Shown one piece after another: positions 6,400 through 51,998 of a stretch of 64,000 nt of DNA (within the stretch, counting starts at the first letter, position 1; the number at the start of each line of letters is the position of its first letter). Below the pieces are notes generated by a model. The model was not told the DNA's origin, did not search any database, and saw nothing but the letters and a program-made list of their open reading frames with translations. Where the stretch lies: NCBI GenBank assembly GCA_964291675.2, contig OZ219866.1, positions 1,888,001 through 1,952,000 of the forward strand, read 5' to 3'. The stretch is from Alphaproteobacteria bacterium. Its GTDB lineage: Bacteria; Pseudomonadota; Alphaproteobacteria; MPNO01. A program made the position numbers and the translations under genes.

Positions 6400-6510
6400 G
6401 CGTGCTCCGCTGAGATGCATGGTCCGACATGGTCCGGAATGTCACGGATATCGACCGCCGCGCGCTCCGGTCGGAACTACGAGGGGCGAAGCGCCGCGGG
6501 TCCTTCGATA

Positions 6511-7324
6511 GGGGCTTATCCAGATTACTTGACGAGCGGGGGGCCGCGACGTTTCGTCCGTCATACCCGGCCCCCGGATCAAGTCCGGGCGTGTTCCCCT
6601 GCTGTCCGGTCTCGCCTTTCGACGCGCGCCGCACCCGGCTCTCCCCGCTCCTCCACCGCCACCACCCCGTCATGGCCGGCCCCCGCTCCTTCTCCCCGTT
6701 GCTCCACCGACTCCCCCGCTACTCCCCACCCCGTCATGCCCGGACTTGATCCGGGCACCCATGGCCGGACTTGATCCGGCCACCCACCGGCGCCGCCACG
6801 CCTCCCCACGGCCCGCCGTGCGCGCCGATAGGCCGCATGGGTGCCCGGATCAAGTCCGGGCATGACGAGGGGGGAGCATGACAGGGGGAGCATGACGAGG
6901 TGGGGCAGCATGGAAGCATGGGGAGCGTTCGGGCGCTCGGGCACGACGCCGGGGATCGCCGGCGGGCACGCCGCAGATCGCGCCGCGCGGCCGCGCCGCC
7001 CCCCTTGGCGCCCGGCCCCCGCTCCTTCTCCCCGTTGCTCCACCGACACTCCCGCTACTCCCCCACCCCGTCATGCCCGGACTTGATCCGGCCACCCACT
7101 GGCGCCGCCCCCCCACGGGCCGCCTTGCGCGCCGAGAGGCCGCATGGGTGCCCGGATCAAGTCCGGGCATGACGAGGGGGGGGTGAACGGGCGGGGGGTG
7201 CATGACGAGGTGGGGAGGCATGGCGAGCGTTTCGACGTTCGGGCGCGACGCCGGGGATCGCCGGCGGGCGCGCCGCCCCCGTGGCGCCCGGCCCCCGCTC
7301 CGTCAAGCAATCTGGATAAGCCCC
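6511..7324. mobile_element. Non-autonomous IS1595-like MITE (MITE-1) filled with REP-B palindromes
   Basis: 24-bp TIRs GGGGCTTATCCAGATTACTTGACG / CGTCAAGCAATCTGGATAAGCCCC; 8-bp direct repeat CTTCGATA at 6503..6510 and 7325..7332. Confidence 0.8.
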
Positions 7325-7455
7325 CTTCGATACGCCCCTTCCGGGCTGCTCAGGATGAGGCTTCGATACGCCCCCGTCAGGCTTGACGGCGCCGCCCCGG
7401 GCGGCGACTCTGGGGGTTCGGGCGGCAATCCAACCACCTTCGGCGGGGGAGAGTC

Positions 7456-8469
7456 ATGCGCGCGGTATGCTTGCGCGAACACGGCGGAATCGATGCGCTC
7501 AGGCTGGAGACCGACTTTCCGGACCCGGCGGTCGGCGAAGGCCAGGCGGTGATCCGCGTCCGCGCGACCTCGCTCAACTACCACGACGTGTTCACCTGCG
7601 ACGGCATGCCGGGCATCAAGGTGCCGATGCCGATGATCATCGGGCTCGACATCGCCGGCGAGATCGCCGAGATCGGGCCGGGGGTCGAGGGCTGGCGGGT
7701 CGGCGACGACGTGCTGGTCAACCCGCTCGATCCGATCGCCCCGGAGAAGGGGCTGATGGGCGAGATGGTGCTGGGCGGCACCGCCGAGTACTGCCTGGTC
7801 GACGCGACCCGGCTGATCGCCATCCCGGACGGGGTGAGCCACGCCCAGGCCGCGGCGCTGCCGGTCGCCTACGGCACCGCGCACCGCATGCTGTTCACCC
7901 ATGGCGGGCTGAAAGCGGGCGAGCGCATCCTGATCCTCGGCGCGAGCGGCGGGGTGGGCTCGTGCTGCGTGCTGCTCGCCAAGCTGGTCGGCGCCGAGGT
8001 GGTGGCCTGCGGCTCGACGCCGGAGAAGCTGGATGCGCTCAGGGAATGGGGCGCCGACCACGTGATCGACTACACCGAGACCCGGTTCGAGCGCGAGATC
8101 TGGAGGCTCTACGAGAAGCCGCACCGGCGGCGGTTTACCGGCGGCGTCGACATGGCGGTCAACTTCACCGGCGGCGATACCTGGGTGCCGAGCCTGAAGG
8201 CGCTCAAGCGCGGCGGCAGGCTGATGACCTGCGGCGCGACGGCGGGCTACGACCCGAGCGAGGATCTGCGCTACATCTGGACCTTCGAGCTCAAGGTGCT
8301 GGGCTCGAACAGCTGGGCGCCGGAGGACCTCACCCGGCTGATGGCGCTGATCGCCGACGGCAGGCTCGACCCCGTGATCGACTGCACGCTCCCGCTGGAG
8401 GAGACCCGCGAAGGCGTGCGCCGGCTGCGCGACCGCGAAGTGATCGGAAAGATCGTCATCGAGCCATGA
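7456..8469 (+). CDS. Zn-binding alcohol dehydrogenase/quinone oxidoreductase (MDR) family
   Basis: SLNYHD, GLDIAG, GASGGVG and GKIVI motifs. Confidence 0.85.
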   Translation: MRAVCLREHGGIDALRLETDFPDPAVGEGQAVIRVRATSLNYHDVFTCDGMPGIKVPMPMIIGLDIAGEIAEIGPGVEGWRVGDDVLVNPLDPIAPEKGLMGEMVLGGTAEYCLVDATRLIAIPDGVSHAQAAALPVAYGTAHRMLFTHGGLKAGERILILGASGGVGSCCVLLAKLVGAEVVACGSTPEKLDALREWGADHVIDYTETRFEREIWRLYEKPHRRRFTGGVDMAVNFTGGDTWVPSLKALKRGGRLMTCGATAGYDPSEDLRYIWTFELKVLGSNSWAPEDLTRLMALIADGRLDPVIDCTLPLEETREGVRRLRDREVIGKIVIEP

Positions 8470-9977
8470 CGCGGCCGCGCAACCTCGGCAGCGTGTTCGC
8501 ATCCCATGCCGGGAGCGACCGCCCGGCGGTGGTCGACCTGTTCGACCCGGACCGGCCGCGGAGCCTGAGCCACCGCGAGCTCGACCGCGCCTGCGGCGCG
8601 ATGGCGGCGGGGCTCGCCGCGCGCGGGCTCGGGCGCGGCGACCGGGTGGCGATCTGCGCGCTCAACCGCCTCGAATACCTGGTGGCGCTGTTCGGCGCGA
8701 TGCGGGCCGGCTGCGTGCCGGTGATGGTCAACATCAAGCTGCCCGAAGACACGATCCGCTTCATCGTCGCCGATTCGGGGGCGCGAATCGTCTTCGCCGA
8801 CGGCGACTTCGCCTTCGATCCGCCGGACGGCGTGGCGCTGATCTCGTTCGACGGCGCCGGCTGGCGGGCCTTCGCCGGGCCGGAGCCGGTACCGGCCACC
8901 CTGCCCGAGCCCGGCGACATCGCCGAACAGCCCTATACCTCGGGCTCGACGGGACGGCCCAAGGGCGTGCTGCTCGACCATGCGGGGCAGTGCTGGATGA
9001 TCGACAAGCTGGTCGAGACCCGCGCGCTGCGCGCCGACGATGCGAGCGTGATCTCGGCCCCGCTGTACCACAAGAACGCCCTGCTCGCCGTCAAGTCGGC
9101 GCTCGCCGCGGGCGGCTCCATCGTGCTCTTCGCCCGCTTCGATGCGCGTCGCTATATCCGCGCGATCGGGCGGTACGGGCTCACCATGCTGACCGGCGTG
9201 CCGACCATGTACGCGCTGATCCTGCAGGAGGAAGAGCTGCTGCGGGAGACCGATCTGAGCTCGGTCCGCGCCTGCTCGATGGGCTCGGCGCCGGCCTCGG
9301 ACAATCTGCTGGACGCGCTTGCGCTGACCTTCCCGGGCGCCGCGCTCAACCTCAACTACGGCATCACCGAGGGCGGGCCGATCCTGTTCTCGTGGAAGCA
9401 CCCGGACGGGCTGGAACGGCCGCGCATGACGGTCGGCTACCCGATCGACGGGGTCGAGATCAGGCTGGTCGGCGGACCCGATGCCGATGAGGGCACGCTG
9501 CATGTCCGGAGCCCGGGGGTGATGGCGGGCTACCACAACCTGCCGGACGACACCGCCCGCGTGCTGCGCGACGGCTGGCTCGACACCGGCGACGTGCTGA
9601 GCCGCGACGCCGACGGCTGGTACTACTTCGTCGGGCGGGTCGACGACATGTTCGTGACCGCGGGCGAGAACATCTACCCGGGCGCCGTCGAGGCGATGCT
9701 GGAGCGCCACCCCGACATCATGCAGGCGGTCGTGGTGCCGGCGCCCGACGCGCTCAAGGCGCATGTCCCGGTCGCCTTCGTCGTCGCCCGGCCGGATTCC
9801 GGGATGGACAAGGAGGCGGTCAAGCGCCACGCGCTCGCCAACGGGCCGGCCTACGCTCATCCGCGCCGCGTGTTCTTCGTCGACGCGCTGCCGCTGTCGG
9901 GCACCAACAAGATCGACCGCCGCGCCCTCCAGGCCCGCGCCGCCGCGGCCGCGCGGGAGAGCGGCACGGCGGGGTAG
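8466..9977 (+). CDS. AMP-binding acyl-CoA synthetase (class I adenylate-forming)
   Basis: YTSGSTGRPKG, YGITE, GWLDTGD and NKIDRR; ATGA overlap with upstream gene. Confidence 0.9.
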   Translation: MTRPRNLGSVFASHAGSDRPAVVDLFDPDRPRSLSHRELDRACGAMAAGLAARGLGRGDRVAICALNRLEYLVALFGAMRAGCVPVMVNIKLPEDTIRFIVADSGARIVFADGDFAFDPPDGVALISFDGAGWRAFAGPEPVPATLPEPGDIAEQPYTSGSTGRPKGVLLDHAGQCWMIDKLVETRALRADDASVISAPLYHKNALLAVKSALAAGGSIVLFARFDARRYIRAIGRYGLTMLTGVPTMYALILQEEELLRETDLSSVRACSMGSAPASDNLLDALALTFPGAALNLNYGITEGGPILFSWKHPDGLERPRMTVGYPIDGVEIRLVGGPDADEGTLHVRSPGVMAGYHNLPDDTARVLRDGWLDTGDVLSRDADGWYYFVGRVDDMFVTAGENIYPGAVEAMLERHPDIMQAVVVPAPDALKAHVPVAFVVARPDSGMDKEAVKRHALANGPAYAHPRRVFFVDALPLSGTNKIDRRALQARAAAAARESGTAG

Positions 9978-9991
9978 GGCGTCCTTCGATA

Positions 9992-10868
9992 GGGGCTTAT
10001 CACCGCTACTCGACGGAACGTCAGCTGGCGCAGACCGGCGGCGGGAACGCCGCCCGCACGGCCGCCGGTTGGGAGGGGTGGCGCCAGTGGGTGCCCGGAT
10101 CAAGTCCGGGCATGACGGGGTGGGGGGCATGGCGACGGGGCGGGCCGCGCCCGGCTCTTCCTGCTTCTCCACCGCCACCACCACCACGTCATGGCCGGAC
10201 TTGATCCGGCCATCCATACCCCTCCGCACGCACGGCGACTCGTGTGGAGGCATGGCGATCGGGGCGGGCCGCACCCGGCTCTCCATGCACCGCTCATGGA
10301 TGCTCGGAACAAGTCCACTGCTGTGCGGTTTAGATTTTCGACGCGGGCTCCGCGCCCGTGAGCATCTGCATCTCCGCTCCCGCTGTTACCCCTACGTCAT
10401 GGCCGGCCCCCGGATCAAGTCCGGGGGTGATCCGGCCATCCACGCGGCCTCTCCGCCCGCACGACGGTCCGACGAGAGGGGCGGCGGCGCCCATGGATGC
10501 CCGGATCAAGTCCGGGCATGACGAGGGAGGGCCGAGGGCGACGGCGGCATGCGACGACGCGTCGCGCGTGTCGCGATCCGTGTCCCGATCCGGCGGATGG
10601 GCCGGAAATCCGCGCGTACCGAGGCTTTGCGCCCGGTCCAGCTCATCCAAACCGGACAGCAGTGGACTCGATCCGGGCATCCACTGGCGCCGCCGCTCCT
10701 CCCGACGGGGCGTTGTACCGGTGGCGCCAGTGGTTGCGCGGATCAAGTCCGCGCATGGGTGGCCGGATCAAGTCCGGCCATGACGGGGTGGTGGTGGCGG
10801 TGGAGGAGTACGGGAGCCGGGGGCGGCCCGCCCGCCCGTGGGTGCCCGGAACGAGTCCGGGGTGACAC
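9992..10868. repeat. Repeat cluster: MITE-1 left end, REP-B copies and one MITE-2 (10316..10664)
   Basis: CTTCGATA|GGGGCTTATC at 9984..10001; many CCGGATCAAGTCCGG; TIRs CACTGCTGTGCGGTTT / AAACCGGACAGCAGTG. Confidence 0.85.
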
Positions 10869-10884
10869 AGGGGCCGGCGGCCGC

Positions 10885-11733
10885 TCACCCCATCAGCGCG
10901 CGGATGTATCCCGGCAGGCCGAAGGCGGCGAGGTGGACCTCCGGCGTGTAGTAGCGGGTCTCGATGCCGGCGGCGCGGAAGCGGCGTTCGATCTCGGCGA
11001 GCGGGGTGGCGCGGGGCGCGGCGCTCCGGCTGCCCCAGCCCAGCGTCATGAAGCCCGCCCCGTAGGTCGGCACCTGGGTGAGGTAGAGCCAGGCGTCGGC
11101 GAACAGCGTCCGCATCCGCCGATAGGTGCCGCGCGCCTCGTCTTCCTGCATGAAGGTGACGCCCGACTGGGCGACCAGGATGCCCGACTCGCCGAGCCGG
11201 GCGCGGCAGTCGGCGTAGAATTCCTGCTCGAACAGCGCGACCGACGAGCCGACGGGATCGGTCGAATCGACGACGATCACGTCGAAGACCTCGTCGGTCT
11301 CCTTCATGAAGGCGGCGCCGTCGGCGAAAATCACCTCGGCGCGCGGGTCGTCGAAGGCATCGCCGCAGATCGACGGCAGGTAGCGGCGCGACAGCTCGAC
11401 GACGGCGGGGTCGAGCTCGATCAGCGCGACCCGCTCGACATCGTGCTTCAAGGCCTCTTCCAGCGCGCCGCCGTCGCCGCCGCCCACGATCGCCACCCGC
11501 CGCGCCGCCCCGTGGGCGAGGATCGGCACGTGGACCAGCATCTCGTGATAGGCGAACTCGTCGCCCTCGGTGGTCTGGACGATGCCGTCGAGCGCCAGCA
11601 CCCGTCCGAAATACGGGTTCTCGAAGATCAGCAGGTCCTGGTAGCCGGTGCGTTCGCGGTGCAGGATCTTCGAGACCCTGAGGCTCTGCCGGTAGTCCTT
11701 GTAGAGGACTTCGGTGAACCATTCCTCGCTCAC
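10885..11733 (-). CDS. speE: Spermidine synthase
   Basis: GTG start; LALDGIVQTTEGDEFAYHE, GGGDGG and DVIVVDSTDP. Confidence 0.92.
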   Translation of the reverse strand: MSEEWFTEVLYKDYRQSLRVSKILHRERTGYQDLLIFENPYFGRVLALDGIVQTTEGDEFAYHEMLVHVPILAHGAARRVAIVGGGDGGALEEALKHDVERVALIELDPAVVELSRRYLPSICGDAFDDPRAEVIFADGAAFMKETDEVFDVIVVDSTDPVGSSVALFEQEFYADCRARLGESGILVAQSGVTFMQEDEARGTYRRMRTLFADAWLYLTQVPTYGAGFMTLGWGSRSAAPRATPLAEIERRFRAAGIETRYYTPEVHLAAFGLPGYIRALMG

Positions 11734-12125
11734 CCGACGACGCCCCGCCTGCGCTCCTCGACCGCCTCGCGGCCGGGCCGGTAGCGGCGCCTGAGCACCG
11801 GGACCGCGTTGCCCGGCTCGCAGCTTCCGCACATGAAGACGTCGAAGGCGGCGTAGCCGATCTCCGGCCAGGTGTGGACGCTGATATGCGACTCGGCGAG
11901 CACCGCGACCCCGGAGACGCCGCCGTTCTCCTCGAACCTGTGCACGTGGATGTGGAGGATCGTCGCGCCGCAGGCCTCGGACGCCTCGCGCAGCGCGGCC
12001 TCGGCGACGGCGATGTCGTCGAGACGGGAGGCGTCCCAGAAGTCGATCAGCAGATGGGTGCCCGCATGGACCGCGCCTTCGCTGCGGACGAGGTAGTCGC
12101 CGGCGGGCGGGGCGATGTCGGCCAT
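11730..12125 (-). CDS. speD: S-adenosylmethionine decarboxylase proenzyme
   Basis: AESHISVHTWPE cleavage motif, DVFMCG; adjacent to speE. Confidence 0.92.
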   Translation of the reverse strand: MADIAPPAGDYLVRSEGAVHAGTHLLIDFWDASRLDDIAVAEAALREASEACGATILHIHVHRFEENGGVSGVAVLAESHISVHTWPEIGYAAFDVFMCGSCEPGNAVPVLRRRYRPGREAVEERRRGVVG

Positions 12126-12134
12126 CGGGTCCGG

Positions 12135-13913
<1,779 letters not shown>

Positions 13914-13934
13914 GGCAAGAGTCCTCGTGGCGGG

Positions 13935-15371: not shown

Positions 15372-15403
15372 GCGTGACTTTTAACCCGCATGTCTCGCCG
15401 CTG

Positions 15404-18420: not shown

Positions 18421-18433
18421 GGCATGCCGCCCT

Positions 18434-18480: not shown

Positions 18481-18541
18481 TGCTCGGGATGAACATAGAG
18501 GACTCCCTCACCCTGGGTAGCGGCGGAGCCGCGTATCGAAG

Positions 18542-18999
18542 GAGGCTTATACCGAATACTTGACGGGCGGGACGCCAACGACACTTCTTCCGTCATGCCC
18601 GGCCCCCGCTCCTTCTCCCCGTTGCTTCACCGACACTCCCGCTACTCCCCACCCCGTCATGCCCGGACTTGATCCGGGCACCCATGGCCGGACTTGATCC
18701 GGCCACCCACCGGCGCCGCCCCCCACCGGCCGTTGTGCGCGCCGAGCCGATAGCCGCCGAGAGGCCGCATGGGTGCCCGGGCGGGAGGCGCCGTGGTGGC
18801 AGTGGGTGCCCGGATCACCCCCGGACTTGATCCAGGGGCCGGGGCATGACGAGGGGGGTGCATGACGGGGGGTGCATGACGAGGTGGGGAGGCATGGCGA
18901 GCGTTCCGACGTTCGGGCGCGACGCCGGGGATCGCCGGCGGGCGCGCCGCCCCCCGTGACGCCCGGCCCCCGCTCCGTCAAGTAATCTGGATAAGCCCC
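18542..18999. mobile_element. MITE-1 copy
   Basis: TIRs GAGGCTTATACCGAATACTTGACG / CGTCAAGTAATCTGGATAAGCCCC; TSD TATCGAAG at 18534..18541 and 19000..19007. Confidence 0.8.
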
Positions 19000-19913
19000 T
19001 ATCGAAGGGCGGCCAGGCGGCACCCACGGCGTGGATCACCAGCCACGCGCCCATGGCGAATTCGGGCGGGATCGCGATCGCGCTTCCGGCAAGCTCGGCG
19101 ACGGGCACGCCGGCGGATTCGACGAAGCGCCTTGTCGCCGCGATATCGGCGCTTTCGAGGATTGCGGCGGCGATGAAGGGGAGGCTCGGCGGGCGGGCGG
19201 CGGGGAGGATGCGGGCGAGCCCGGCGGGGTCGACGAAATCGAGCCGGCCGCGGTCGAGCGCGACGGTCGACGGTCGCCGCCGCCGCCTCGCGCCCGGTGA
19301 AGCGGGCATGACGGGCGGCGGCCTCGGCAGGGTCGTCGGTGCAGACCAGGACGCCCGCGAGCCCGGCGAGCGCGTTGTCGCGGGCGATCGCCGAGTCCTG
19401 CCAGACGAGGTCGGGCGTCTCGTGGCGCAGGATCTGCATGCGGCCCTCCGCCATGGTGCCGGGCGGGACGCGCAGCACCGAGAACGCGGCCTCTTCCTCG
19501 CCGCCGCCGTCGACCGGCATCGGCCGGCGCAGATGGGCCACGGGCCGCGGCGCAAACCCGGCTTCCTCCAGCCGCCGCGCCTCGGCGTCGGTGTCGTCGA
19601 CCGAATACGCGATCAGGTGCAGCCCCTCATGGCGGGCGACCGCCTCGCGGTGGGCGCGCGCGAACGGCGTGTCGAGCCCCGCCACGTCGGTCAGGATCTC
19701 CAGATAGCCGCGCCGCAGCATGGCGCAGCGATTGGCGGTGCCGGTCGGCACGCGCTCGCCCGCCGCGTCTTCGTTGCGGTGGATCGTGAACGGGGTCAGC
19801 GGGAAGCCGAGGCGGGCGAACGCCCCGGATGCCGCGTCCATGTCGGAGACGAACCAGCCGACATGGTCGAGGAAGATCTCCCCCGGGGCGGGGGTCTGTG
19901 CGGCGGCGCTCAG
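19000..19913 (-). pseudogene. VOC/glyoxalase-like protein, frameshifted
   Basis: FLDHVGWFV, GTANRCAML and GYLEI; 7-bp tandem duplication at 19262..19275 shifts frame; 3' end interrupted by MITE-1. Confidence 0.7.
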
Positions 19914-30291: not shown

Positions 30292-30396
30292 TCCTTCGAT
30301 ACGCGGCTTCGCCGCTACTCAGGATGAGGTTGGAGGGTGGCGGTCCAGACTTCCCCCTCATCCTGAGTAGCCGCCGAAGGCGGCGTATCGAAGGAC
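30292..30396. repeat. Inverted pair of REP-A elements between convergent genes
   Basis: CCTTCGATACGCGGCTTCGCCGCTACTCAGGATGAGG and its inverted counterpart CCTCATCCTGAGTAG...CGTATCGAAGGA. Confidence 0.85.
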
Positions 30397-32359: not shown

Positions 32360-32836
32360 CCCCACCCCGTCATGGCCGGACTCGTTCCGGCCATCCACGC
32401 CGCCCGCAAGGGGCGCGGCCCCCGCTCCTCCCCCACCCCGTCATGCCCCGGCCCCCGGATCAAGTCCGGGGGTGATCCGGGCACCCATGGCCGGACTTGA
32501 TCCGGCCACCCACCGGCGCCACCCCTCCCCACGGGCCGTTGTGCGCGCCGAGAGGCTGCATGGGTGCCCGGATCAAGTCCGGGCATGACGAGGGGGGGTG
32601 AACGGGCGGGGGGTGCATGACGGGGTGGGGCAGCATGGCGAGCGTTCCGACGTTCGGGCGCGACGCCGGGGATCGTCGGCGGGCGCGACGCAGGTTCCAC
32701 CGCGCCGCCCCCCGTGACGCCCGGCCCCCGCTCCTTCTCCCCGCTATTCCACCGACTCCCCCCCCCCGTCATGCCCCGGCCCCCGGATCGAGTCCGGGCA
32801 CGACATAAGGGGGCGAGGGACGGGCGTATCGAAGGA
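32360..32836. repeat. REP-B cluster (MITE-1-type interior, ends degenerate)
   Basis: Multiple GTCATGCCCGG/CCGGATCAAGTCCGG units, same modules as 18542..18999. Confidence 0.85.
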
Positions 32837-35752: not shown

Positions 35753-36415
35753 ATGACCGAGACCGTTGTCTTCGACCTCGACGGCACGCTCGTCGACACC
35801 CTGCCCGACATTGCGGCGGCGGCCAACCGGGTGCTGGCGGCGGAAGGCCGCCGCGCGCTGAGCCGCGAGGAGGTGTGCCGGCTGATCGGCAGCGGCGGCC
35901 GCGTGTTGATGGCGAACGCCTTCCGGGCGACCGGCGAGCCGGTTTCGGAGGCGCGCATCGATGCCGCTTTCGCCGCCTATATCGCGGCCCACGAGGCCGA
36001 CCCGGTCGTGGGCAGCGCGCCCTTCCCCGGGGTGCACGCGGCGCTGGAGGCGCTCGTCGAACGCGGCACCCGGCTCGCGGTCTGCACCAACAAGCCGGGC
36101 CGCCTCGCCGGGATCGTGCTGGACACCTTCGAGCTGACAAAGTTCTTCGCCGGGGTGGTCGCGGGCGACACGCTGCCGACCCGCAAGCCGAGCCCGGAGC
36201 CGCTCGTCGAGGCGGTCGCGCGCGCCGGCGGGGCGGGGCGCAAGGCGGCGATGGTGGGCGACAGCCCGATCGACGCCGAGGCGGCGCGCGCCGCCGCCAT
36301 CCCCTTCGTCGCGGTGAGCTTCGGCTACAGCCCGGTGCCGGCCACGCAGCTCGGCGCCGACGCGGTGATCGACGGCTTCGACGCGCTGGCCGGGGCGATC
36401 GACGGGCTGCGGTAA
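35753..36415 (+). CDS. gph: Phosphoglycolate phosphatase (HAD)
   Basis: FDLDGTLVDT, CTNKP, RKPSP and MVGDS. Confidence 0.8.
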   Translation: MTETVVFDLDGTLVDTLPDIAAAANRVLAAEGRRALSREEVCRLIGSGGRVLMANAFRATGEPVSEARIDAAFAAYIAAHEADPVVGSAPFPGVHAALEALVERGTRLAVCTNKPGRLAGIVLDTFELTKFFAGVVAGDTLPTRKPSPEPLVEAVARAGGAGRKAAMVGDSPIDAEAARAAAIPFVAVSFGYSPVPATQLGADAVIDGFDALAGAIDGLR

Positions 36416-37036
36416 GGGGCGTCCTTCGATACGCGCCCTGCGGGCGCTACTCAGGATGAGGGTGGGCGATAGGCGGCTTTGCCGCCACTCGGGATGAGGC
36501 TGGGGCGAGGGGCGTCCTTCGATACGCGCCCTGCGGGCGCTACTCAGGATGAGGGTGGGCGATAGGCGGCTTTGCCGCCACTCGGGATGAGGCTGGGGCG
36601 AGGGGCGTCCTTCGATACGCGCCCTGCGGGCGCTACTCAGGATGAGGGTGGGCGATAGGCGGCTTTGCCGCTACTCGGGATGAGGGTGTGGTGAGGGGCG
36701 TCCTTCGATACGCGCCCTGCGGGCGCTACTCAGGATGAGGGTGGGCGATAGGCGGCTTTGCCGCCACTCGGGATGAGGCTGGGGCGAGGGGCGTCCTTCG
36801 ATACGCGCCCTGCGGACGCTACTCAGGATGAGGGTGGGCGATAGGCGGCTTTGCCGCCACTCGGGATGAGGCTGGGGCGAGGGGCGTCCTTCGATACGCG
36901 CCCTGCGGGCGCTACTCAGGATGAGGGTGGGCGATAGGCGGCTTTGCCGCCACTCGGGATGAGGCTGGGGCGAGGGGCGTCCCCGATAACTCTCCCTCAT
37001 CCTGAGTAGCCCGCCGCAGGCGGGCGTATCGAAGGA
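36415..37036. repeat. Tandem array of six 93-bp REP-A-based units plus one inverted REP-A
   Basis: Unit starts at 36415, 36508, 36601, 36694, 36787 and 36880 (partial at 36973); units near identical. Confidence 0.95.
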
Positions 37037-39248: not shown

Positions 39249-39965
39249 GGGGCTTACATGGATGGGTTGACGGGCGGTTGGCTGGCGCAGACTGCCGACG
39301 GGAACGCCGCCCCGCCTGCCCCCTCCCGTCATGCCGGGACTTGATCCACTGCTGTCCGGTTTAGATTTTCGACGCGGGCTCCGCGCCCGTGAGCATCTGC
39401 ATCTCCGCTCCCGCTGTTACCCCTACGTCATGGCCGGACTTGATCCGGCCATCCACGCGGCCTCTCCGCCCGCACGACGGTCCGACGAGAGGGGCGGCGG
39501 CGCCCATGGATGCCCGGATCAAGTCCACTGCTGTCCGGTTTAGCCTTCGACGCGCGTCGCGCCCGGCGTTTCCCGCCCCATCACCATGCCTCCCCCCATC
39601 GTCATGCCCGGCGCCCGGATCAAGTCCGGCCATGACGGGGTGGGGGTGGCGGTGGAGAAGCACGGGAGCCGGGTGCGGCCCGCCCCGCCCGTAGGTGCCC
39701 GGAACGAGGCCGGGGTGACAACGGAGGGGCAGGGACGGCAAGTGCGGGCGTGCGGCGATCCATGTCCCGATCCGGCGGATGCGTCGATATCCCGCCCGGA
39801 ACAAGGCTTTGCGCCCGGTCCAGCTCATATGAACCGGACAGCAGTGGACTTGATCCGGGCACCCACTGGCACCGCCGCCCCTCCCGGCCGAGCGCCGTGC
39901 GGGCGGAGGGGCTGCATGGGTGGCCGGATCACCCCCGGGCTTGATCCCGGGGCCCGCCATGACGG
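39249..39965. repeat. Repeat cluster: MITE-1 end, REP-B copies and MITE-2 (39347..39846)
   Basis: GGGGCTTACATGGATGGGTTGACG; TIRs at 39347, 39526 and 39832; GGACTTGATCC on both sides of MITE-2. Confidence 0.85.
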
Positions 39966-43478: not shown

Positions 43479-43482
43479 TCCG

Positions 43483-43779: not shown

Positions 43780-43884
43780 CGCCGCCGCGTGCAGCCGGCG
43801 CTCGGTTCTTCCGTGCCGGCCCGCTTTCCTGGAGACACTTGGAAAGGAGACCCACCGATGCCGCGTAACGCATCCTCAACTACA

Positions 43885-44462
43885 CAAGTCCACTGCTGTC
43901 CGGTTTAGATGCGCTGGATCGGGCGCAAAGCCTTGTTCCGGGCGGGATATCGGCGCATCCGCCGGATCGGGACACGGATCGCCGCACGCCTGCACTTGCC
44001 GTCCCTGCCCCTCCGTTGTCACCCCGGCCTCGTTCCGGGCACCCACGGCCGGGGCGGGCCGCACCCGGCTCCCGTACTCCTCCACCGCCACCCCCACCCC
44101 GTCATGGCCGGACTTGATCCGGCCACCCATGCGCGGACTTGATCCGCGCAACCACTGGCGCCGCCGCCCCTCTCGTCGGACCGTCGTGCGGGCGGAGGGG
44201 CTGCGTGGATGGCCGGATCACCCCCGGACTTGATCCGGGGGCCGGCCATGACGTAGGGGTAACAGCGGGAGCGGAGATGCAGATGCTCACGGGCGCGGAG
44301 CCCGCGTCGAAAATCTAACGGCCGCGGGCCGGGCACCGGACAGCAGTGGATCGAGTCCGGGCATGACGGAAGGGGGCCGGGCATGACGGGGTGGGGCGGG
44401 GCGGCGTTCCCGTCGGCGGTCTCCGCCAGTCGACCGCCCGTCAACCCATCCATATAAGCCCC
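43885..44462. repeat. Repeat cluster inverted relative to 39249..39860 (MITE-2 43891..44348 plus MITE-1 end)
   Basis: TIR CACTGCTGTCCGGTTT at 43891; ACCGGACAGCAGTG at 44335; CGTCAACCCATCCATATAAGCCCC at 44439..44462. Confidence 0.85.
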
Positions 44463-44491
44463 CAAATATATCCCGAATACGCATTTTTCGC

Positions 44492-44520
44492 TTGACATGG
44501 GACACGTTTTGGGGTAGATT
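44492..44520 (+). promoter_or_regulatory. Sigma70-like promoter
   Basis: TTGACA-17 bp-TAGATT. Confidence 0.6.
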
Positions 44521-44608
44521 TGCCACAGTCGCGAAATGGGGCGCCGGAGGTTTCGGCGCCCCTTTCTCGTGCCCGCACCCCTCGCATCGCAGAACGGAGT
44601 ATTGCCCG

Positions 44609-45400: not shown

Positions 45401-45419
45401 GCGTCGCCGCCGCGCCCCG

Positions 45420-45649
45420 GCCGCCCGTCGTCCCGCAGCGCGCACAGGATGCGGCAGTCGCCGACGCGGCAGCGCCGGTAGCGGCCGGGTTCGGACCCGT
45501 GCAGCGGGGCGCCGGCCCGGCGCGGATCGTCGAGCCGGGCCAGGCGGTCTCGCAGACAGGCGCGGATGCGCGCCGCGCCCGGAGCGCGCGGCGAGCGCCC
45601 GCAACCGGTCGCAGGTGGCGTCGGGCAGACGCGCGGCGGTCTGTTTCAC
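45420..45649 (-). pseudogene. Collapsed RHH antitoxin + RelE/StbE toxin remnant
   Basis: GGAGG + VKQTAARLPDATCDRLRALAARSGR, then ARLDDPRRAGAPLHGSEPGRYRRCRVGDCRILCAL. Confidence 0.6.
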
Positions 45650-45917
45650 GGCGTCCTCCTGCGGTTGACCTGCATGCCACGCGTGCCCGCCCGAGCGGGC
45701 CGCGCTGCGCTGCACGAAGCGGAGAACGCCGCCGGTCCCGGACCGGAAGCCGACGCCATGAGCCGGGCAAGGCCGTGCGGCTTGAAACGGCTGCCGCGCC
45801 CGCCCATGTCGTTCATGCCTCATCTCCTGGCGAGGCGCTCATGGATGACGGCTGCGAGACGGGCGGCACGGGCCGGGGCGGGCGACAGCGTCGTCGGCCA
45901 GTGCGATATTCCGCCCC

Positions 45918-46808
45918 ATGACGCGGCGTTACAGCAAGGCGATCCGGGTGCTGCGCTATCTGACCGCCGCCGTCGTCGGCTACGCGTTGCTGACCGGCGG
46001 ACTGTTTCTCGGCCAGCGCCGGTTGCTCTATTTCCCCGACCGGGCGCCGCCGGATCTGGCGCTCGCGGGTCTCGACGGCATGGCGCCGGCGGCGCTGGCC
46101 ACGGATGACGGCCTGTCGCTCCTAGCGTGGTACGCGCCGGCGCGCGGCACGGGCAAGGCGACGCTGGTCTACTTCCACGGAAACGCGGGACATATCGGCC
46201 ACCGCGCCGGCAAGGTGCGGCCCTATCTCGACGCCGGCCACGGGGTGCTGTTGGTGAGCTGGCGCGGCTACGGCGGCAACGACGGCAGTCCGACCGAGGA
46301 TGGGCTGTATCGCGACGGCCGCGCCGCCTTCGCCTTTCTCGACCGGGCGGGCGTGGTGCCGGAGACGACGATCGTCTACGGCGAGTCGCTCGGCAGCGGC
46401 GTGGCGGTCCAGATGGCGCGGGAACGCCGCGTCGGCGGGGTGGTGCTGGAATCGCCCTATACGTCGATCCCCGCGGTCGCCGCGCACCATTACTGGTACA
46501 TTCCGGCCGCTTCCCTTGTCCGCGACAAGTTCGACTCCCTGTCCAAGATCGGCGGGATCGGCGCCCCGTTGCTGGTCCTTCACGGCGAGCGCGACCGCGT
46601 CGTCCCGGTCGAGTTCGGGCGCGAGCTCTTTGCCGCCGCCAGGGAACCCAAGACGTGGCGCGGCTTCGCGCAAGCCGGTCACGACCTCTACGGGGCCGGC
46701 GCGGCCGACGCGGTGCTCGCCTTCCTGTCCGAGGCCATGGGCAGGCCCGCCGAACCGGACAGCGCGGCCGACAGCGCCCCCGGGCCGGATCCGGCAGCGC
46801 CCCGGTGA
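45918..46808 (+). CDS. Alpha/beta hydrolase (Bem46/ABHD13-like) with N-terminal TM
   Basis: YFHGNAG, WRGYG, GESLG and HGERDRVVP. Confidence 0.88.
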   Translation: MTRRYSKAIRVLRYLTAAVVGYALLTGGLFLGQRRLLYFPDRAPPDLALAGLDGMAPAALATDDGLSLLAWYAPARGTGKATLVYFHGNAGHIGHRAGKVRPYLDAGHGVLLVSWRGYGGNDGSPTEDGLYRDGRAAFAFLDRAGVVPETTIVYGESLGSGVAVQMARERRVGGVVLESPYTSIPAVAAHHYWYIPAASLVRDKFDSLSKIGGIGAPLLVLHGERDRVVPVEFGRELFAAAREPKTWRGFAQAGHDLYGAGAADAVLAFLSEAMGRPAEPDSAADSAPGPDPAAPR

Positions 46809-46933
46809 CCCGCGGGGGCGAAGGGAATGGCCGCGGAGCGCCCCTCAAGCCGCTTTGACAGCGGGAACGATGGCCGGTAACAGCGTCGGGGGAAGGCTCG
46901 GACAAGCCCCGTTCCAAGCCGGAGGCGGAGAAG

Positions 46934-47449
46934 GTGGAAAGGGCGATCTGGCTGTCCTACGACCTCGGGACGAGCGTCGCCTTCCTGAAGAGCTATGAGT
47001 TCGAGCGGAACTTCCTGGAGTCCCTGAAGGCCGATGTCGGCGACGCGGTCACGATGAAGCGGCGCTCGCGCATCTATGTCACGTACAGGGACGACGGCCG
47101 CATGAGAGGCAGTTTCCTGTTCGGAAGGCGCAAGGCCCCGCCCTGGACCGGCTTCGGCGATCGGGCCGAACGGGAATTCGATGAAGACCGACGATCGGAC
47201 CGGAGCGGGTACCGGTCGATTCCGGTTTTGTCTTCGCGCCGTTCAACGAGCGCGACCGGCATCACGCGTCCGCGGGCCGGCTGGCAGGATGGTTGGACCT
47301 GGCGCGGGCCGTCTGGCCATGTCGACGCCGTGCCCTGCAATGTCATCGAAGACGTGAACGCACCGGTGTCCGCAATATTGACGTTCAACGAGCGGGATTT
47401 TCTGGACGTCTGCTTGCAGCACGACATCGAGCTGCTTACCGCCGACTGA
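46934..47449 (+). pseudogene. Fused remnants of a hypothetical gene and a PIN-like C-terminus
   Basis: AIWLSYDLG...FGRRKAPPWTG followed by VDAV..NVIED...ILTFNERDF; looks internally deleted. Confidence 0.4.
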
Positions 47450-47560
47450 GATCGCGCCGACCGCGTTCTCAGGGTTGCGGCGCGGATGTCCGTCTGCCTC
47501 CGGCTTGGCGTCGCGGGCGTCTTCTCCGGACGGGGTTGACCCCCTGGAGTTCTTACCATA

Positions 47561-47579
47561 TGTTACTAAAAAGGTAACA
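47561..47579. promoter_or_regulatory. Putative autoregulatory operator of the TA operon
   Basis: TGTTAC-N7-GTAACA downstream of TTGACC. Confidence 0.5.
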
Positions 47580-47616
47580 ACAAGCTCCTCCGGCAAGATT
47601 ACCCTTCAGGAAACTC

Positions 47617-47964
47617 ATGGAGATCTTCGCCAGGGACAGGAAGCTCGCCGCGGCCCTTGAGCATGAACACGTGTGCAAGCGGCGTTTCGGAGTAGCGATG
47701 TGCAACAAGCTCAGAGTTCGACTGGCAGCTCTCCGAGCGGCGGACTCCCTGGCGACGTTCTGGCCGCCGAACTCGAGACCCGAGCGTTGTCACGAGTTGA
47801 AGGGCGCTCGCGCGGGAACCTTTTCAATCGATCTACAGCAACCGTATCGGCTGTTGTTCAAGCCGATCGAAGAAGAACCGCCAAGAGACCGATCGAACGA
47901 GCAGGAACGCTGGTCGTCGATAACTGAACTGGAAATACTAGGGATTGAGGACACCCATGGCTAG
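47617..47964 (+). CDS. HigB/RelE-like toxin (killer protein)
   Basis: RCHELKGARAGTFSIDLQQPYRLLF...IEDTHG. Confidence 0.8.
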   Translation: MEIFARDRKLAAALEHEHVCKRRFGVAMCNKLRVRLAALRAADSLATFWPPNSRPERCHELKGARAGTFSIDLQQPYRLLFKPIEEEPPRDRSNEQERWSSITELEILGIEDTHG

Positions 47965-49081
47965 CAATGACCGTATTCCCATCGAACCGATGGCGACACC
48001 GCATCCTGGAGAGGTGATCGTCGAGTACCTTGCCTCCCATGGCTGGACCCAACGAGAGCTCGCCCGGCGTACCGGCCTTACACCCAAGACAATCAGCGTG
48101 ATCTGCCGCGCCAAGGCATCGGTCACTGCGACGACAGCCTTGTCGTTGGAGCGGGTCTTCCGGCGTCCGGCGCATTTGTGGCTAAACCTTCAAAGGCAAT
48201 TCGACGAGGCAGAGGCGCGGCAACGGGCGCTTGAAGACTCTGTTCGATGGAAGAATTGGGCGAGTACTTTTCCTCTCCGGGACATGAAAAGGCTCCGGTT
48301 CTCATTGCAGCCAGCCAGCTCCGATGTCGATACGCTGCTCAACTATCTGGGCGTCTCCTCCCCGGATAGTTGGGATGCGGTATGGCAAGACTGTGACATC
48401 GCCTACAGACAGACGCGGCACTTGACCGGGAGCATGGCGTCAATTTCTGCGTGGGTGCGCGAAACCGAGCTGTTGGCCGGGGAGATCCAGACGGAAAATT
48501 ACAACGAGACAGTTCTCCGCTCACTTGTCGAAGAGCTTCGACGGCTCACGACTGAGCGCGTGGACGAGGCTATGGGGGCGGTCCAGGAACTTTGTGCGAA
48601 AGCGGGCGTCGCCGTCGTCCGGGTGCCGCAATTGCCGAATTCGGGAATTAGCGGATGTGCCAGGTGGCTGAACGACACCAAGGCCCTTATCGGCCTTACG
48701 CATCGGTACGAAACCGACGACCAAATGTGGTTTTCCTTTTTCCACGAATTGGGGCACTTGCTGCTGCACAAGAGAATGCGTCCATTTGTTCTCGACAACG
48801 CCGTGGATGACCTGTTCGACAGAATTGTCGATCCAGAGATGGAGAAATTCGAAACGGAGGCCAACCAATTTGCCGCAGATACATTGATTCCTCCCGCAGC
48901 GCTGGACGAGTTCATAAGGCGGAAGACTTTTTCAAACGATGGCATTTGCGATTTTGCACGAACTATGGGTGTGTCTCCAGGAATTGTCGTAGGTCGACTT
49001 CAATATCTTGGACTGCTCGAAGCCTGCCAAGGCAATGCTCTCAAACAGAAACTTGCATGGCACATGGCTGAGGCCGAATGA
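47957..49081 (+). CDS. HigA-like HTH fused to ImmA/IrrE metallopeptidase
   Basis: PHPGEVI..TQRELARR; WFSFFHELGH; EANQFA; lower GC than flanks. Confidence 0.85.
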   Translation: MASNDRIPIEPMATPHPGEVIVEYLASHGWTQRELARRTGLTPKTISVICRAKASVTATTALSLERVFRRPAHLWLNLQRQFDEAEARQRALEDSVRWKNWASTFPLRDMKRLRFSLQPASSDVDTLLNYLGVSSPDSWDAVWQDCDIAYRQTRHLTGSMASISAWVRETELLAGEIQTENYNETVLRSLVEELRRLTTERVDEAMGAVQELCAKAGVAVVRVPQLPNSGISGCARWLNDTKALIGLTHRYETDDQMWFSFFHELGHLLLHKRMRPFVLDNAVDDLFDRIVDPEMEKFETEANQFAADTLIPPAALDEFIRRKTFSNDGICDFARTMGVSPGIVVGRLQYLGLLEACQGNALKQKLAWHMAEAE

Positions 49082-49323
49082 GCACGACTCTTGACGGTCG
49101 CGCGCCGGCGGCCCGAACTGTCAGGTGATTACCGTCCCACTACATGCGAAGGATCGGTATCCGGGTCCCAACCCCGGCTTGGGGTCGTGTCCCCGGACGA
49201 GGTGCAGGCGTTCCGGGTTCGGTTGGCAGCCGTGGGCAAATGACCCGCCGCGGCGACCGTCGTGAATGTGGCGGCGAGGCGTTCCTGGATACGCCCCGGG
49301 CTCGATCCGGCGCCGTATCGAAG

Positions 49324-50018
49324 GGGGCTTATGCCGAATACTTGACGGGCGGGTGGCCAACGACACTTCTTCCGTCATGCCCGGCCCCCGGATCGAGTCC
49401 GGGGGTGACGAGGGGGGTACATGACGAGGTGGGGCAGCATGGAAGCATGGGGAGCGTTCGGGCGCTCGGGCACGACGCCGGGGTTCGCCGGCGGGCACGC
49501 CGCAGATCGCGCCGCGCGGCCGCGCCGCTCCCCGTGACGCCCGGCCCCCGCTCCTTCTCCCCGTTACTCCACCGACTCCCCCGCTACTCCCCCCGTCATG
49601 CCCGGACTTGATCCACTGCTGTCCGGTTTAGCCTTCGACGCGCGTCGCGCCCGGCGTTTCCCGTCCCATCACCATGCCTCCCCCCATCGTCATGCCCGGA
49701 CTTGATCCGGGCATCCACTGGCGCCGCCGCTCCTCCCGACGGGGCGTTGTACCGGTGGCGCCAGTTGTTGCGCGGATCAAGTCCGCGCATGGGTGGCCGG
49801 ATCAAGTCCGGCCATGACGGGGTGGGGGTCGCGGTGCAGGAGTACGGGAGCCGGGTGCGGCCCGCCCCGGCCGTGGGTGCCCGGAACGAGGCCGGGGTGA
49901 CAACGGAGGGGCAGAGACGGCAAGTGCGGGCGTGCGGCGATCCGTGTCCCGATCCGGCGGATGCGCCGATATCCCGCCCGGAACAAGGCTTTGTGCCCAG
50001 TCCAGCTCACATAAACCG
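49324..50018. repeat. Repeat cluster: MITE-1 left end, REP-B copies and a MITE-2 (from 49614) interrupted by IS110
   Basis: TATCGAAG|GGGGCTTATGCCGAATACTTGACG; TIR at 49614; right TIR split at 50018/51922. Confidence 0.85.
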
Positions 50019-50366
50019 TCATGGTCTCGGCGGTGCTGAGCCACCCCGTGGCATGAAACTCGGGGCGTTCGGCTGAGGGTTTGCCGATCGTCGCGCGGGT
50101 CTGCCGTGGCAGGATGGGAATGGTGGAGGCGGCGACGCGTGAGCGTTCCGTTTATCGGTGATGTGGTTCCCGAGATATAAACTGCTTCCGGCGGTCGGCT
50201 CCGCACCCCGTACTGTGCCCGGCCCGCGGCCGTGGACGCGCGGCAAATCGAACCGCACCCGCTCGACGGGTGCGTGTCCTTCCGACCGCTGTCCCCGCCT
50301 CCACCGTGGCGATGCCACGGCGCGATCCTACGCCGCCGTGGCGAGAGCGCAACGAGGAGGACAGCG
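50019..50366 (+). ncRNA. Candidate IS110 bridge RNA region
   Basis: Long structured non-coding left end; hairpin GCACCCG-CTCGA-CGGGTGC flanked by target-like AATCGAACC and TGTCC. Confidence 0.5.
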
Positions 50367-51617
50367 ATGAAGACGGAAGGCTTGCACGTCGTGCGGCCGC
50401 GCGCGGCGGGTCTGGACGTGCACAAGATGGAGATCACCGCGACGGTTCGCCTGTGCGAGGGCGAGGGCGAGCCGGTGGTGGAGACGCGCTGCTTCAGCTC
50501 GCTTCCGAGCGGTCTGGCGGAGATGGTCGCCTGGCTGACCGGTCGCCGCGTCGAGGCCGCTGTCATGGAAGGGACCGGGATCTACTGGCAGGCGCCCTTC
50601 GCGGCGGTGGAGGCGGCGGGGATCGAAGCGATCCTGGTGCACGCGCGTCAGGTCAAGCAGTTGAAGGGGCGCAAGACCGATGTCGCCGACAGCGTGTGGC
50701 TGGCCTGCGTGTGCCAGTTCGGGCTCTGCACGCCTTCCCATGTTCCCCCCGAGCCGTTCCGGGAGCTGCGCTCGCTGAGCCGCCAGCGGCGTACCCTGGT
50801 CAGGCAGCGCTCGACCGTGCGCAACCGGGTGCAGAAGATCGTCGACCGCGCCGGCCTGCGCATCGGCGGCATCCTCTCCGACGTCTTCGGCGTCAACGGC
50901 CGCAAGATCCTCGACGGGCTGGCGCAAGCCACGCCGCGCGCGGTCATCCTCGCCTCGCTCACCGGCCACGTCGCCAACAAGCTGGAGGGGCTCGGCGAGG
51001 CGCTCTCCCTGAGCCTGGGCGACAACGACCGCTTCATGCTCGGCGATCTGCTGGACGAGCATGACGCGCTCGAGGCGCGCATCGCGTCCTACGGCGAGAA
51101 GATCGACCGGCAGATGACGCCGTGGCAGGAACAGCTCCGCCTGCTGACCACCATCCCCGGCATCGACCGCATCGCCGCCTCGACCATCCTGATCGAGATC
51201 GGCCCGGATATCGAGGCGTTCGCCTCCAAGCAGCACTTCGCCGCCTGGGCCGGGCTCTGCCCCGGCAACAACGAAAGCGGCGGAAAGCGCCGCAACGCGC
51301 GCACCCGAAGGGGCTCCAAGACGCTGCGCGCCAGCCTCGTCGAATGTGCCCACGGCGCGGCCCGAACCAAGGGGTGCCAGTTCGAGGCCCACCACCGCGC
51401 GCTCGCCGCCCGGCGCGGATACAAGCGCGCCATCGTGGCCAGCGCACACAAGATGCTGCGCATCGTTTATGTCGTGCTCAAGACCGGCAGGCCCTACTAC
51501 GACCGCACCGCCGACTACGACGCGCTGATGGTCAAGCGCAACGCCCCGCGCTGGATCCGAATGCTCCGCCGCTACGGCTACATCCAACCCCGGCGCGCCG
51601 AACCCAAGGCCACCTGA
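50367..51617 (+). CDS. IS110 family DEDD transposase/recombinase
   Basis: GLDVHK, VMEGTG, KTDVADS, TIPGI and GLCPGNNESGGK. Confidence 0.95.
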   Translation: MKTEGLHVVRPRAAGLDVHKMEITATVRLCEGEGEPVVETRCFSSLPSGLAEMVAWLTGRRVEAAVMEGTGIYWQAPFAAVEAAGIEAILVHARQVKQLKGRKTDVADSVWLACVCQFGLCTPSHVPPEPFRELRSLSRQRRTLVRQRSTVRNRVQKIVDRAGLRIGGILSDVFGVNGRKILDGLAQATPRAVILASLTGHVANKLEGLGEALSLSLGDNDRFMLGDLLDEHDALEARIASYGEKIDRQMTPWQEQLRLLTTIPGIDRIAASTILIEIGPDIEAFASKQHFAAWAGLCPGNNESGGKRRNARTRRGSKTLRASLVECAHGAARTKGCQFEAHHRALAARRGYKRAIVASAHKMLRIVYVVLKTGRPYYDRTADYDALMVKRNAPRWIRMLRRYGYIQPRRAEPKAT

Positions 51618-51628
51618 CCGGCCCGCAT

Positions 51629-51921
51629 AACGCCGGACCGCCGCGCGGGACCGCTTCGGGCCACATCGGGGAAGTCCACCGCTCGTCTCGCCGCCCCCTT
51701 CCGGCGATCTCAGCCAACTCCCTCCCGGCGTTGGATGGGGCCCTCGCGCGCCCCCACCGAAACTGTTTCACGGCAACGCCGGACCGCCGCGCGGGACCGC
51801 TTCGGGCCACATCGGGGAAGTCCACCGCTCGTCTCCGCCGCCCCCTTCCGGCGATCTCAGCCAACTCCCTCCCGGCGTTGGATGGGGCCCTCGCGCGCCC
51901 CCACCGAAACTGTTTCACGGC
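51629..51921 (+). repeat. Tandem duplication (146/147 bp) of the IS110 right end
   Basis: Copies at 51629..51774 and 51775..51921, both ending AACTGTTTCACGGC. Confidence 0.92.
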
Positions 51922-51998
51922 AACCGGACAGCAGTGGATCGAGTCCGGCCATGACGAGTGGGGGTGCCGGCGGTGAGTTCGCGGCGGCCCGCGCGCCC

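Follow-up and report, generated by a model that had tools for sequence, protein, structure and literature searches.

Intergenic repeat mosaics of an alphaproteobacterial genome as probable stacks of target-specific insertions

Here, we describe the intergenic repeat mosaics in a window of 64,000 nucleotides (contig C2, positions 1888001-1952000) of a metagenome-assembled alphaproteobacterial genome, G000. Two kinds of repetitive extragenic palindromic (REP) units, REP-A and REP-B, are interleaved there with two families of miniature inverted-repeat transposable elements (MITEs), MITE-1 and MITE-2, and with an insertion sequence (IS) of the IS110 family. The genome comprises 4.8 Mb in two contigs with 69.4% G+C; its completeness is estimated at 93.7% and its contamination at 6.7%. 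Close relatives, all alphaproteobacterial metagenome-assembled genomes, were taken from a protein-based scan, and the closest of them (G010) shows 92% identity. Coordinates without a contig name refer to the window, and features lie on the plus strand unless stated otherwise; composite stretches are given without a strand.

REP-A is a unit of about 40 bp in which conserved arms flank a variable GC hairpin. Its 5' end carries the octamer CTTCGATA, which is relatively AT-rich for this genome. REP-B is a hairpin with the stem CCGGA/TCCGG and a 5-nt loop. Within the window, a REP-B 22-mer matches 31 times with at most three mismatches (0 expected), the REP-A 3' motif 17 times (0.08 expected) and the REP-A 5' 11-mer 23 times (1.15 expected), and a motif map gathers these repeats in about ten intergenic mosaics. 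The whole genome holds 240 complete REP-A units and 538 REP-B cores (at most two mismatches), and hundreds of these units are unoccupied. No Rfam family reached its gathering score anywhere in the window.

All five layers that a first-pass annotation had listed for this stretch, i.e., REP-A, MITE-1, REP-B, MITE-2 and IS110, are present far above chance, and they stand together in the largest mosaic (49314-51955), with the reservation that MITE-1 is represented there by its left end only. This mosaic starts with a REP-A 5' motif on the minus strand (49314-49324) and the solo MITE-1 left end (49324-49346). A REP-B hairpin that is cut after TCC (49595-49615) forms the left flank of a MITE-2 of 2319 bp (49616-51934), and an inverted REP-B half forms its right flank (51935-51955). 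The length of this MITE-2 includes the IS110-family element, which measures 1908 bp with one AC core counted (50017-51924) and splits the MITE-2 right end between ..CACATAAAC and CGGACAGCAG. The element carries a recombinase gene of 416 amino acids (50367-51617), an upstream non-coding end with the left-target guide ATATAAAC (8 nt, 50175-50182) and a candidate left-donor guide CGGCAAA (50241-50247), and a right-end tandem duplication of two times 147 bp (51629-51924).

The relation between MITE-1 and REP-A is best seen in mosaics 1 and 3. In mosaic 1, a MITE-1 of 814 bp (6511-7324; terminal inverted repeats 6511-6533 and 7302-7324) is preceded by CTTCGATA as the 5' end of a REP-A unit (6503-6510) and followed by a second copy of the octamer (7325-7332), which opens the remainder of the targeted REP-A (7325-7360). 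Six REP-B hairpins and one MITE-2-type end lie in its interior, about 337 bp of which are duplicated; the MITE-2-type terminal module (type c, 6599-6640) adjoins a REP-B with a nested 21-nt hairpin at 6553-6598. In mosaic 3, the targeted REP-A lies on the minus strand (18506-18541), and the octamer appears as TATCGAAG on both sides (18534-18541 and 19000-19007) of a MITE-1 of 458 bp (18542-18999).

The first-pass annotation had placed MITE-1 ends at REP-A and asked whether the flanks of the various ends are random throughout the genome, and for MITE-1 they are not. The end GGGGCTTATCCAGATTACTTGAC occurs 43 times genome-wide (at most six mismatches), and ten facing pairs of ends delimit full copies of 87-1201 bp. 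All ten are surrounded by CTTCGATA or its complement as a direct repeat (eight perfect, one with 7/8 and one with 6/8 matches). On one side of each full copy the octamer runs on into the remainder of REP-A, as expected from an 8-bp duplication of the REP-A 5' end. Unpaired ends (n = 23) adjoin CTTCGATA exactly in 12 cases and with one mismatch in two; another two adjoin TATCGAAG on the complementary side, and seven adjoin neither octamer.

In sister species, MITE-1 is a homogeneous element of about 287 bp. With at most three mismatches, its end pattern yields 32+32 matches in G004, 45+31 in G006 and 9+6 in G008; the same kind of search found no MITE-1 ends in G010, and the reversed pattern, used as a control, gave 0 matches in every genome. 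Eleven copies were fetched from four sister species. Eight of them have the REP-A octamer on both sides and one has it on one side only, and the other two (L019 and L021) are located outside REP-A between perfect 8-bp duplications of unrelated sequence. An 8-bp target duplication is found in 10/11 copies if 7/8 matches are counted. Since L019 and L021 carry other perfect 8-bp duplications, the octamer represents the target and is not part of MITE-1.

The terminal repeats also point to a transposase family. PF12762, the IS1595-type transposase, has 10 matches in G004, 12 in G006, two in G008, one in G007 and four in this genome. At the G004 locus L137, a terminal repeat 71 bp upstream of a PF12762 gene agrees with the MITE-1 end of that genome at 21/24 positions, and other IS1595-family loci reach 20/24 (L140), 18/24 (L132), 17/24 (L112 and L134) and 15/24 (L133), such that MITE-1 terminal repeats are shared with elements encoding a DDE_Tnp_IS1595 transposase at six loci of sister genomes. 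For one family member, ISApl4, 8-bp direct repeats that are preferably A/T-rich are described in PMC12561309. MITE-1 is likely a non-autonomous IS1595-family derivative, with the identity of its transposase judged from the resemblance of the ends. The first-pass annotation had suggested looking for autonomous transposases with the same ends; IS1595-family ends like those of MITE-1 occur in the sister genomes, and for MITE-2 none were found in this genome or in the relatives inspected. When seven unpaired MITE-1 ends of G004 were inspected for an adjacent transposase, only L112 had one. It was rejected as the transposase of MITE-1 itself, as it belongs to a different IS1595 element inserted inside MITE-1. 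L112 (G004 C6 1120920-1124200) represents a further nesting in its own right, i.e., an IS1595-family element with passenger genes within a MITE-1 copy. A BLAST search with the MITE-1 end against plasmids gave no match.

REP-B hairpins are contained in the MITE-1 interiors, as the first-pass annotation had seen, with 0 to 10 hairpins per full copy. The interiors in this genome are enlarged (up to 10 REP-B) and chimeric, show mixed end types and are partly tandem-duplicated. The short MITE-1 of G004, G008 and G002 already has a central inverted doublet of a REP-B-type hairpin, and a MITE-1 copy of G007 carries the same REP-B hairpin as this genome. Because the doublet is part of the MITE-1 of about 287 bp in sister species, REP-B inside MITE-1 is ancestral cargo and no insertion layer. 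The view of the first-pass annotation is largely supported, in that three mechanistically different insertion systems are visible and each hits the layer below, with the caveat that the chain is not strictly linear. As a side observation, 94 places of the genome have an outer REP-B in which three bases at the edge of the loop have given way to a 21-nt inner hairpin, always inverted relative to the outer REP-B (e.g., 10395-10445 and 6553-6598). It is possible that this inner hairpin arose by template switching.

MITE-2 without an IS is a non-coding element of 223-454 bp with the terminal inverted repeats CTGCTGTCCGGTTT and its complement and with a target duplication. In agreement with the first-pass annotation, almost every true copy has ends CTGCTGTCCGGT that border on a REP-B hairpin broken off after TCC. 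The REP-B occurs in either orientation before each of the four end types. Among 26 facing pairs of ends in the genome, 12 show a direct GGA-N5-TCC duplication of at least 10/11 and three have direct flanks with 8/11 matches. In the direct pairs the asymmetric 5-nt loop stands in direct orientation, and rare hairpin variants (GGATCAAGCCC, GGAACGAGTCC and GGACTTGGTCC) are copied on both sides. All six copies (6/6) from G001 and G010 have 11/11 duplications, which rebuild an intact REP-B. In the window, two MITE-2s are nested (39349-39844): the outer ends at 39349 and 39844 are bordered by the direct 11/11 duplication GGACTTGATCC, and a second left end (39528) lies in the internal REP-B. The direct duplication fits a MITE-2 nested in a MITE-2, of which one right module was later lost. 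The REP-B hairpins entered by MITE-2 include some that lie outside MITE-1, and in one case (C1 740040/740628) the target is a REP-A with a stem-loop of the REP-B type.

Within the genus, the right-end module (r-module) of MITE-2 is conserved at 71-81% identity. Two candidates for its parent were rejected: a single-copy DDE_Tnp_1 element (C2 ~2801250-2802962), which has superficially similar ends of opposite polarity, and an IS4-family IS, which has unrelated ends and sits inside the internal hairpin of MITE-2 in relatives. A search for ISL3 was negative, and a BLAST search with the r-module against plasmids gave no match.

Other insertion sequences use REP-B as well. The IS4-family IS just mentioned (1346 bp; C2 3561619-3562964) scores 144.4 bits against NF033592 (cut-off 115), encodes an IS4-type DDE transposase and has CAT termini with the ends CATAAGCGC... 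It is flanked by 11-bp duplications in both copies of this genome (2/2) and in all eight inspected in relatives (8/8), and it shares the target geometry of MITE-2. Five of the eight copies in relatives lie in REP-B-type hairpins, often in the hairpin inside MITE-2; three loci of relatives (L121-L123) show this IS with differing duplications at non-repeat sites. Both copies of this genome sit in the 21-nt inner REP-B hairpin, and the copy at C1 341852-347611 is interrupted by about 4.4 kb of other DNA. Homologues gave 17 matches in G005 and eight in G008. A second element of the IS110 family, which is 1377 bp long and has subterminal inverted repeats, occupies one fixed position of the REP-B stem in 4/4 copies, all of them outside the window (G000 C2 328342-329718, 1391795-1393154, 1414147-1415523 and 2996734-2998093).

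The IS110-family element of the largest mosaic has eight genomic copies with at least 99.3% identity, and 8/8 are found at the identical position in a MITE-2 right end, which specifies the statement that IS110 sits in a MITE-2 terminal repeat. Its recombinase combines the N-terminal RuvC-like DEDD domain (PF01548, 2.3e-22) with the C-terminal Transposase_20 domain (PF02371, 3.6e-23), and it scores 266.6 bits against NF033542, 'IS110 family RNA-guided transposase' (cut-off 140). The junctions read ..AAAC|CGTCATGG and ..CACGGCAAAC|CGGACAG, with AC common to both and without terminal inverted repeats. Elements with 91% identity in another genome are inserted at many unrelated sites with variable right flanks. 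The comparison with these elements shows that the conserved word in the left flank is target sequence, that the core is AC, and that the element extends from C/AGTCATGG to CACGGCAA.

At the position homologous to the guide ATATAAAC, the element of G008 has ATCTAAAC, three elements have GACAAAAC and one has CCAAAAC. In 6/6 aligned elements the guide corresponds to the element's own left flank, with a single mismatch in one of them. Filled and empty MITE-2 right ends of this genome were compared, as had been suggested. Right ends with the exact word ATATAAAC are filled in five cases and empty in none; the variant ACATAAAC gives two filled and five empty ends, ATCTAAAC one filled and four empty, and ATCCAAAC none filled and 11 empty. 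The better a MITE-2 right end matches the guide, the more often it is occupied. CGGCAAA (50241-50247) matches the element's own right end ..CACGGCAAAC and may represent the left-donor guide. The left-target guide pairs in the same sense as that of IS621, for which PMC11208160 describes a left-target guide identical to the top strand of the target, core included.

Three side observations concern the same element. The right-end duplication of two times 147 bp is a feature of this copy only and starts at ..CATAACGCCGGAC. The likeness of this word to the target of the element itself, ..ATAAACCGGAC, suggests a self-directed or half-matched recombination. Another copy, at C1 ~1046170, has a 15-bp duplication of the same right end. 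In public contigs from runs X22, X23 and X1, an A>C exchange at 50177, the third base of the guide, yields ATCTAAAC as in G008 and looks like a natural guide polymorphism, and one contig of run X23 joins 50013 to 51922, i.e., a MITE-2 end without IS110, which may derive from any paralogous empty end.

Taken together, we consider the mosaics to be stacks of target-specific insertions by unrelated transposition systems that were later scrambled by recombination, with a probability of roughly 0.8. This is based on positions, duplications, empty sites, guide-target covariation and protein families, all of which were observed directly. In the proposed order of events, MITE-1, as an IS1595-family derivative, would insert at the REP-A octamer, duplicating 8 bp, and would bring REP-B hairpins along as cargo. 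MITE-2 would enter REP-B via staggered nicks about one helical turn apart and symmetric on the stem, by which GGA-N5-TCC is duplicated. An RNA from the upstream non-coding end of IS110, presumably a bridge RNA if this end is expressed, would guide the IS110 insertion, with ATATAAAC pairing just inside the MITE-2 right terminal repeat, and the element would recombine at the AC core with no long duplication. The first-pass annotation had called such repeats safe-harbour targets; a fitness benefit of landing in them would be conceivable. It had also considered a REP-associated nuclease. No REP-associated tyrosine (Y1) transposase (RAYT) was found in this 93.7% complete genome by PF01797, which was detected in 6/14 reference genomes as a control.

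The insertions are lineage-specific. Where mosaic 2 occupies a spacer of about 900 bp in this genome, G001 has about 22 bp, the spacer of mosaic 3 (with the MITE-1 at 18542-18999) contains no repeat in G004, and G010 has other genes at both spots. Several observations do not fit the proposed stacking well. More than half of the MITE-1 ends (23/43) are solo ends. A two-ended autonomous IS1595 copy with MITE-1 ends was not found: the copies inspected in G004 have the transposase-proximal end only, and in this genome none of the four PF12762 genes had a MITE-1-like end under the filter used. Seven of the 26 MITE-2 pairs have inverted flanks of at least 9/11, loop included, and four have neither direct nor inverted flanks; the four simple pairs in the window all belong to these two classes. 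Owing to the palindromic REP-B stem, the MITE-2 duplication can also be read as 9 bp with 5'-CA ends. Neither the multicopy repeats nor the DDE_Tnp_1 genes of this genome include a parent of MITE-2, and no autonomous partner was found in G001, G010 and G003. In the consensus fold of the IS110 upstream end, a predicted structure, the left-target guide is unpaired between helices and only 1/71 pairs is compensatory; neither visual inspection nor the fold allowed the right-target and right-donor guides to be located.

A rival explanation holds that adjacency is not targeting, i.e., that the mosaics arose mainly by homologous or hairpin-mediated recombination or by template switching, and that ends within repeats are merely joints. 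The solo MITE-1 ends, the chimeric MITE-1 copies with mixed end types and the inverted flanks of MITE-2 pairs would all be compatible with this, as would the tandem arrays (a 93-bp unit in 6.1 copies in the window and three MITE-2 ends in tandem with 330-bp spacing at C1 545890-546550) and the 21-nt hairpin that takes the place of three loop bases of REP-B at 94 places. Further support comes from C2 3213400-3215030, where three paralogous spacers differ by joints exactly at a hairpin. Yet perfect direct duplications of 8 bp or 11 bp that copy unique variants on both sides are no product of recombination, and recombination leaves unexplained both the guide-target covariation of IS110 and the fact that the same elements have different duplications at non-repeat sites (L019 and L021 for MITE-1, L121-L123 for the IS4-family IS). 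We therefore regard this explanation as improbable for the primary pattern. Solo ends, inverted flanks, arrays, chimeric MITE-1 copies and hairpin joints are instead the marks of recombination and template switching that reshape the stacks after insertion; recombination accounts for the secondary scrambling, not for the primary pattern. The case of the three spacers was noted on its own account: at C2 3212900-3215030 a small gene occurs three times in tandem, and one spacer has an intact REP-A doublet, whereas in the other two a rearrangement has left joints exactly at the internal hairpin of REP-A, which is of REP-B type.

It is even less probable that the flanking REP halves are extended terminal repeats which the elements carry along. 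The palindromic REP-B stem makes the MITE-2 flanks resemble an extension of the inverted repeat, and the seven inverted pairs, with the loop included, would agree with that. However, the 5-nt loop is direct and not inverted in 12/26 pairs of this genome and in the 6/6 copies of relatives, either REP-B orientation flanks either kind of MITE-2 end, MITE-1 is also found with unrelated 8-bp duplications, and hundreds of REP-A and REP-B units are empty. Least credible of all, to the point of being nearly negligible, is that chimeric assembly of the metagenome gave rise to the mosaics. What could be held in favour of it are the two-contig assembly with its estimated contamination and the public contigs, which are short, span no mosaic and neither support nor contradict the assembly there. 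Against it, the same junctions recur at eight (IS110), ten (MITE-1) and 26 (MITE-2) unique loci with site-specific duplications, and matching duplications cannot be created by an assembler error. Assemblies of sister species, which are independent, repeat this architecture, and that of G008 again has IS110 in a MITE-2 end (L030 and L032). The recurrence at many unique loci and in independent assemblies makes the case against chimeras.

Stacked, target-specific insertion thus stays our preferred interpretation, and each of the behaviours it involves is already known; no new mechanism comes to light. Insertion sequences that target REP elements comprise ISPpu9, ISPpu10, ISPa11, ISPsy8, ISRm19 and ISRm22 (Tobes and Pareja 2006, PMC1525189), and as with these, the second IS110-family element (4/4) and the IS4-family IS (2/2) are located inside REP-B. 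The insertions described here differ in being stacked, with two non-autonomous elements that target repeats and one IS that targets a MITE end. IS621 (Durrant et al. 2024, PMC11208160) shares with our IS110 element the DEDD recombinase, the long upstream non-coding end, the guide with a 2-nt core and the natural guide-target covariation. Differences are the core (AC instead of CT), the target, which is here the inner edge of a MITE terminal repeat, and the guides, of which only the left-target and possibly the left-donor guide were placed here; right-side recognition looks short. Relatives of this IS110 may already be included in the target motifs that PMC11208160 gives for each guide pair in its Supplementary Data 2.

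With respect to the IS4 family, duplications of about one helical turn, 5'-CAT termini and the target specificity of IS231 are described by De Palmenaer et al. (2008, PMC2266710). The IS4 element found here resembles the IS231/ISH8-like subgroups in its CAT ends and 11-bp duplications, and it is unlike them in that its target is a REP-type hairpin; MITE-2 shares the target geometry and not the ends. MITE-1 is similar to the IS1595 family (PMC12561309) in its 8-bp repeats, which lean towards A/T, and in short terminal repeats starting with GG; in contrast to this family, it strongly prefers one octamer inside a REP, and this in a genome of 69% G+C.

Some parallels belong to the general background. 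IS110-family elements reportedly insert in terminal repeats of other transposons, and the same holds for our element. The reported case concerns large resistance transposons and elements of the IS1111 type with subterminal repeats, whereas here a MITE of about 300-400 bp is hit by an IS110-group element whose left end is long. For IS231A, the preferred target is a short GC dyad with a spacing of five bases, and cassette derivatives of this element exist. Bacterial interspersed mosaic elements and the REPIN-RAYT system are intergenic mosaics of palindromic units with inverted hairpin doublets. Such mosaics and doublets are also seen here; unlike REPIN-RAYT, the genome shows no Y1 transposase and contains true terminal-repeat elements with target duplications. 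A literature search by repeat motifs returned only unrelated primers, and a search for nested MITE, REP and IS arrangements in bacteria found no comparable hierarchy among the papers listed. Unusual features are the number of layers stacked in a single spacer, the preference of two MITEs for REPs and a possible natural retargeting of an IS110 guide to a MITE end.

From a biological point of view, the mosaics provide a natural example of repeats that recruit mobile DNA layer upon layer, by which spacers grow and genes stay intact. The natural series of guides and targets with graded occupancy is usable for studying the mismatch tolerance of bridge-RNA recombinases. In addition, likely transposase families are assigned to two MITE families that are abundant in an uncultured genus of Alphaproteobacteria; the parent of MITE-2 was not found among the genomes inspected. 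We put forward only tentatively, and consider rather doubtful at present, that REP-B is a convergent landing pad for at least three unrelated chemistries (IS4 DDE, the MITE-2 transposase and the IS110-family recombinase), and that the IS110 guide was retargeted from a generic site, GACAAAAC in the relatives with 91% identity, to a MITE end, with the guide variants ATATAAAC and ATCTAAAC tracking the MITE-2 end variants in a guide-target co-evolution. If this were true, the MITE-2 r-module could be kept partly as a substrate of this interplay.

The remaining mosaics of the window show the same components in other combinations. Mosaic 2 (9983-10870) combines a REP-A octamer with a solo MITE-1 left end (9992-10014) and with REP-B hairpins; its MITE-2 of 345 bp (10318-10662) has a left end of type b, a right end of type r and REP-B flanks that are inverted with 9/11 matches. 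An inverted REP-A doublet at 30293-30394 is empty and serves as an example of an empty site. Five REP-B hairpins at 32369-32835 end at a REP-A 5' motif (32825-32835). A tandem unit of 93 bp that contains REP-A is repeated 6.1 times and followed by one inverted REP-A (36415-37035); the array itself (36415-36982) has 97% matches, and its unit comprises one full REP-A and the 3' arm of a second one. A MITE-2 of 454 bp (43893-44346) has a degraded REP-B as its left flank and is followed by a solo MITE-1 end (44440-44462). A REP-B cluster outside any MITE is found at 54479-54609.

The commonest IS of the genome (1454 bp, nine copies) was examined as well and is not part of the hierarchy, as its insertion sites are unrelated. 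Within ~5300-7370, the gene order shared with G010 is broken at mosaic 1: the genes to the left of the mosaic are located in G010 at ~0.42-0.53 Mb and those to the right at ~2.02 Mb. Just upstream of the largest mosaic, at 47000-49100, G+C drops to 0.57-0.61 compared with ~0.70-0.72 elsewhere, and this stretch may represent acquired DNA. Parts of the window are also present in public contigs from runs labelled sponge metagenome.

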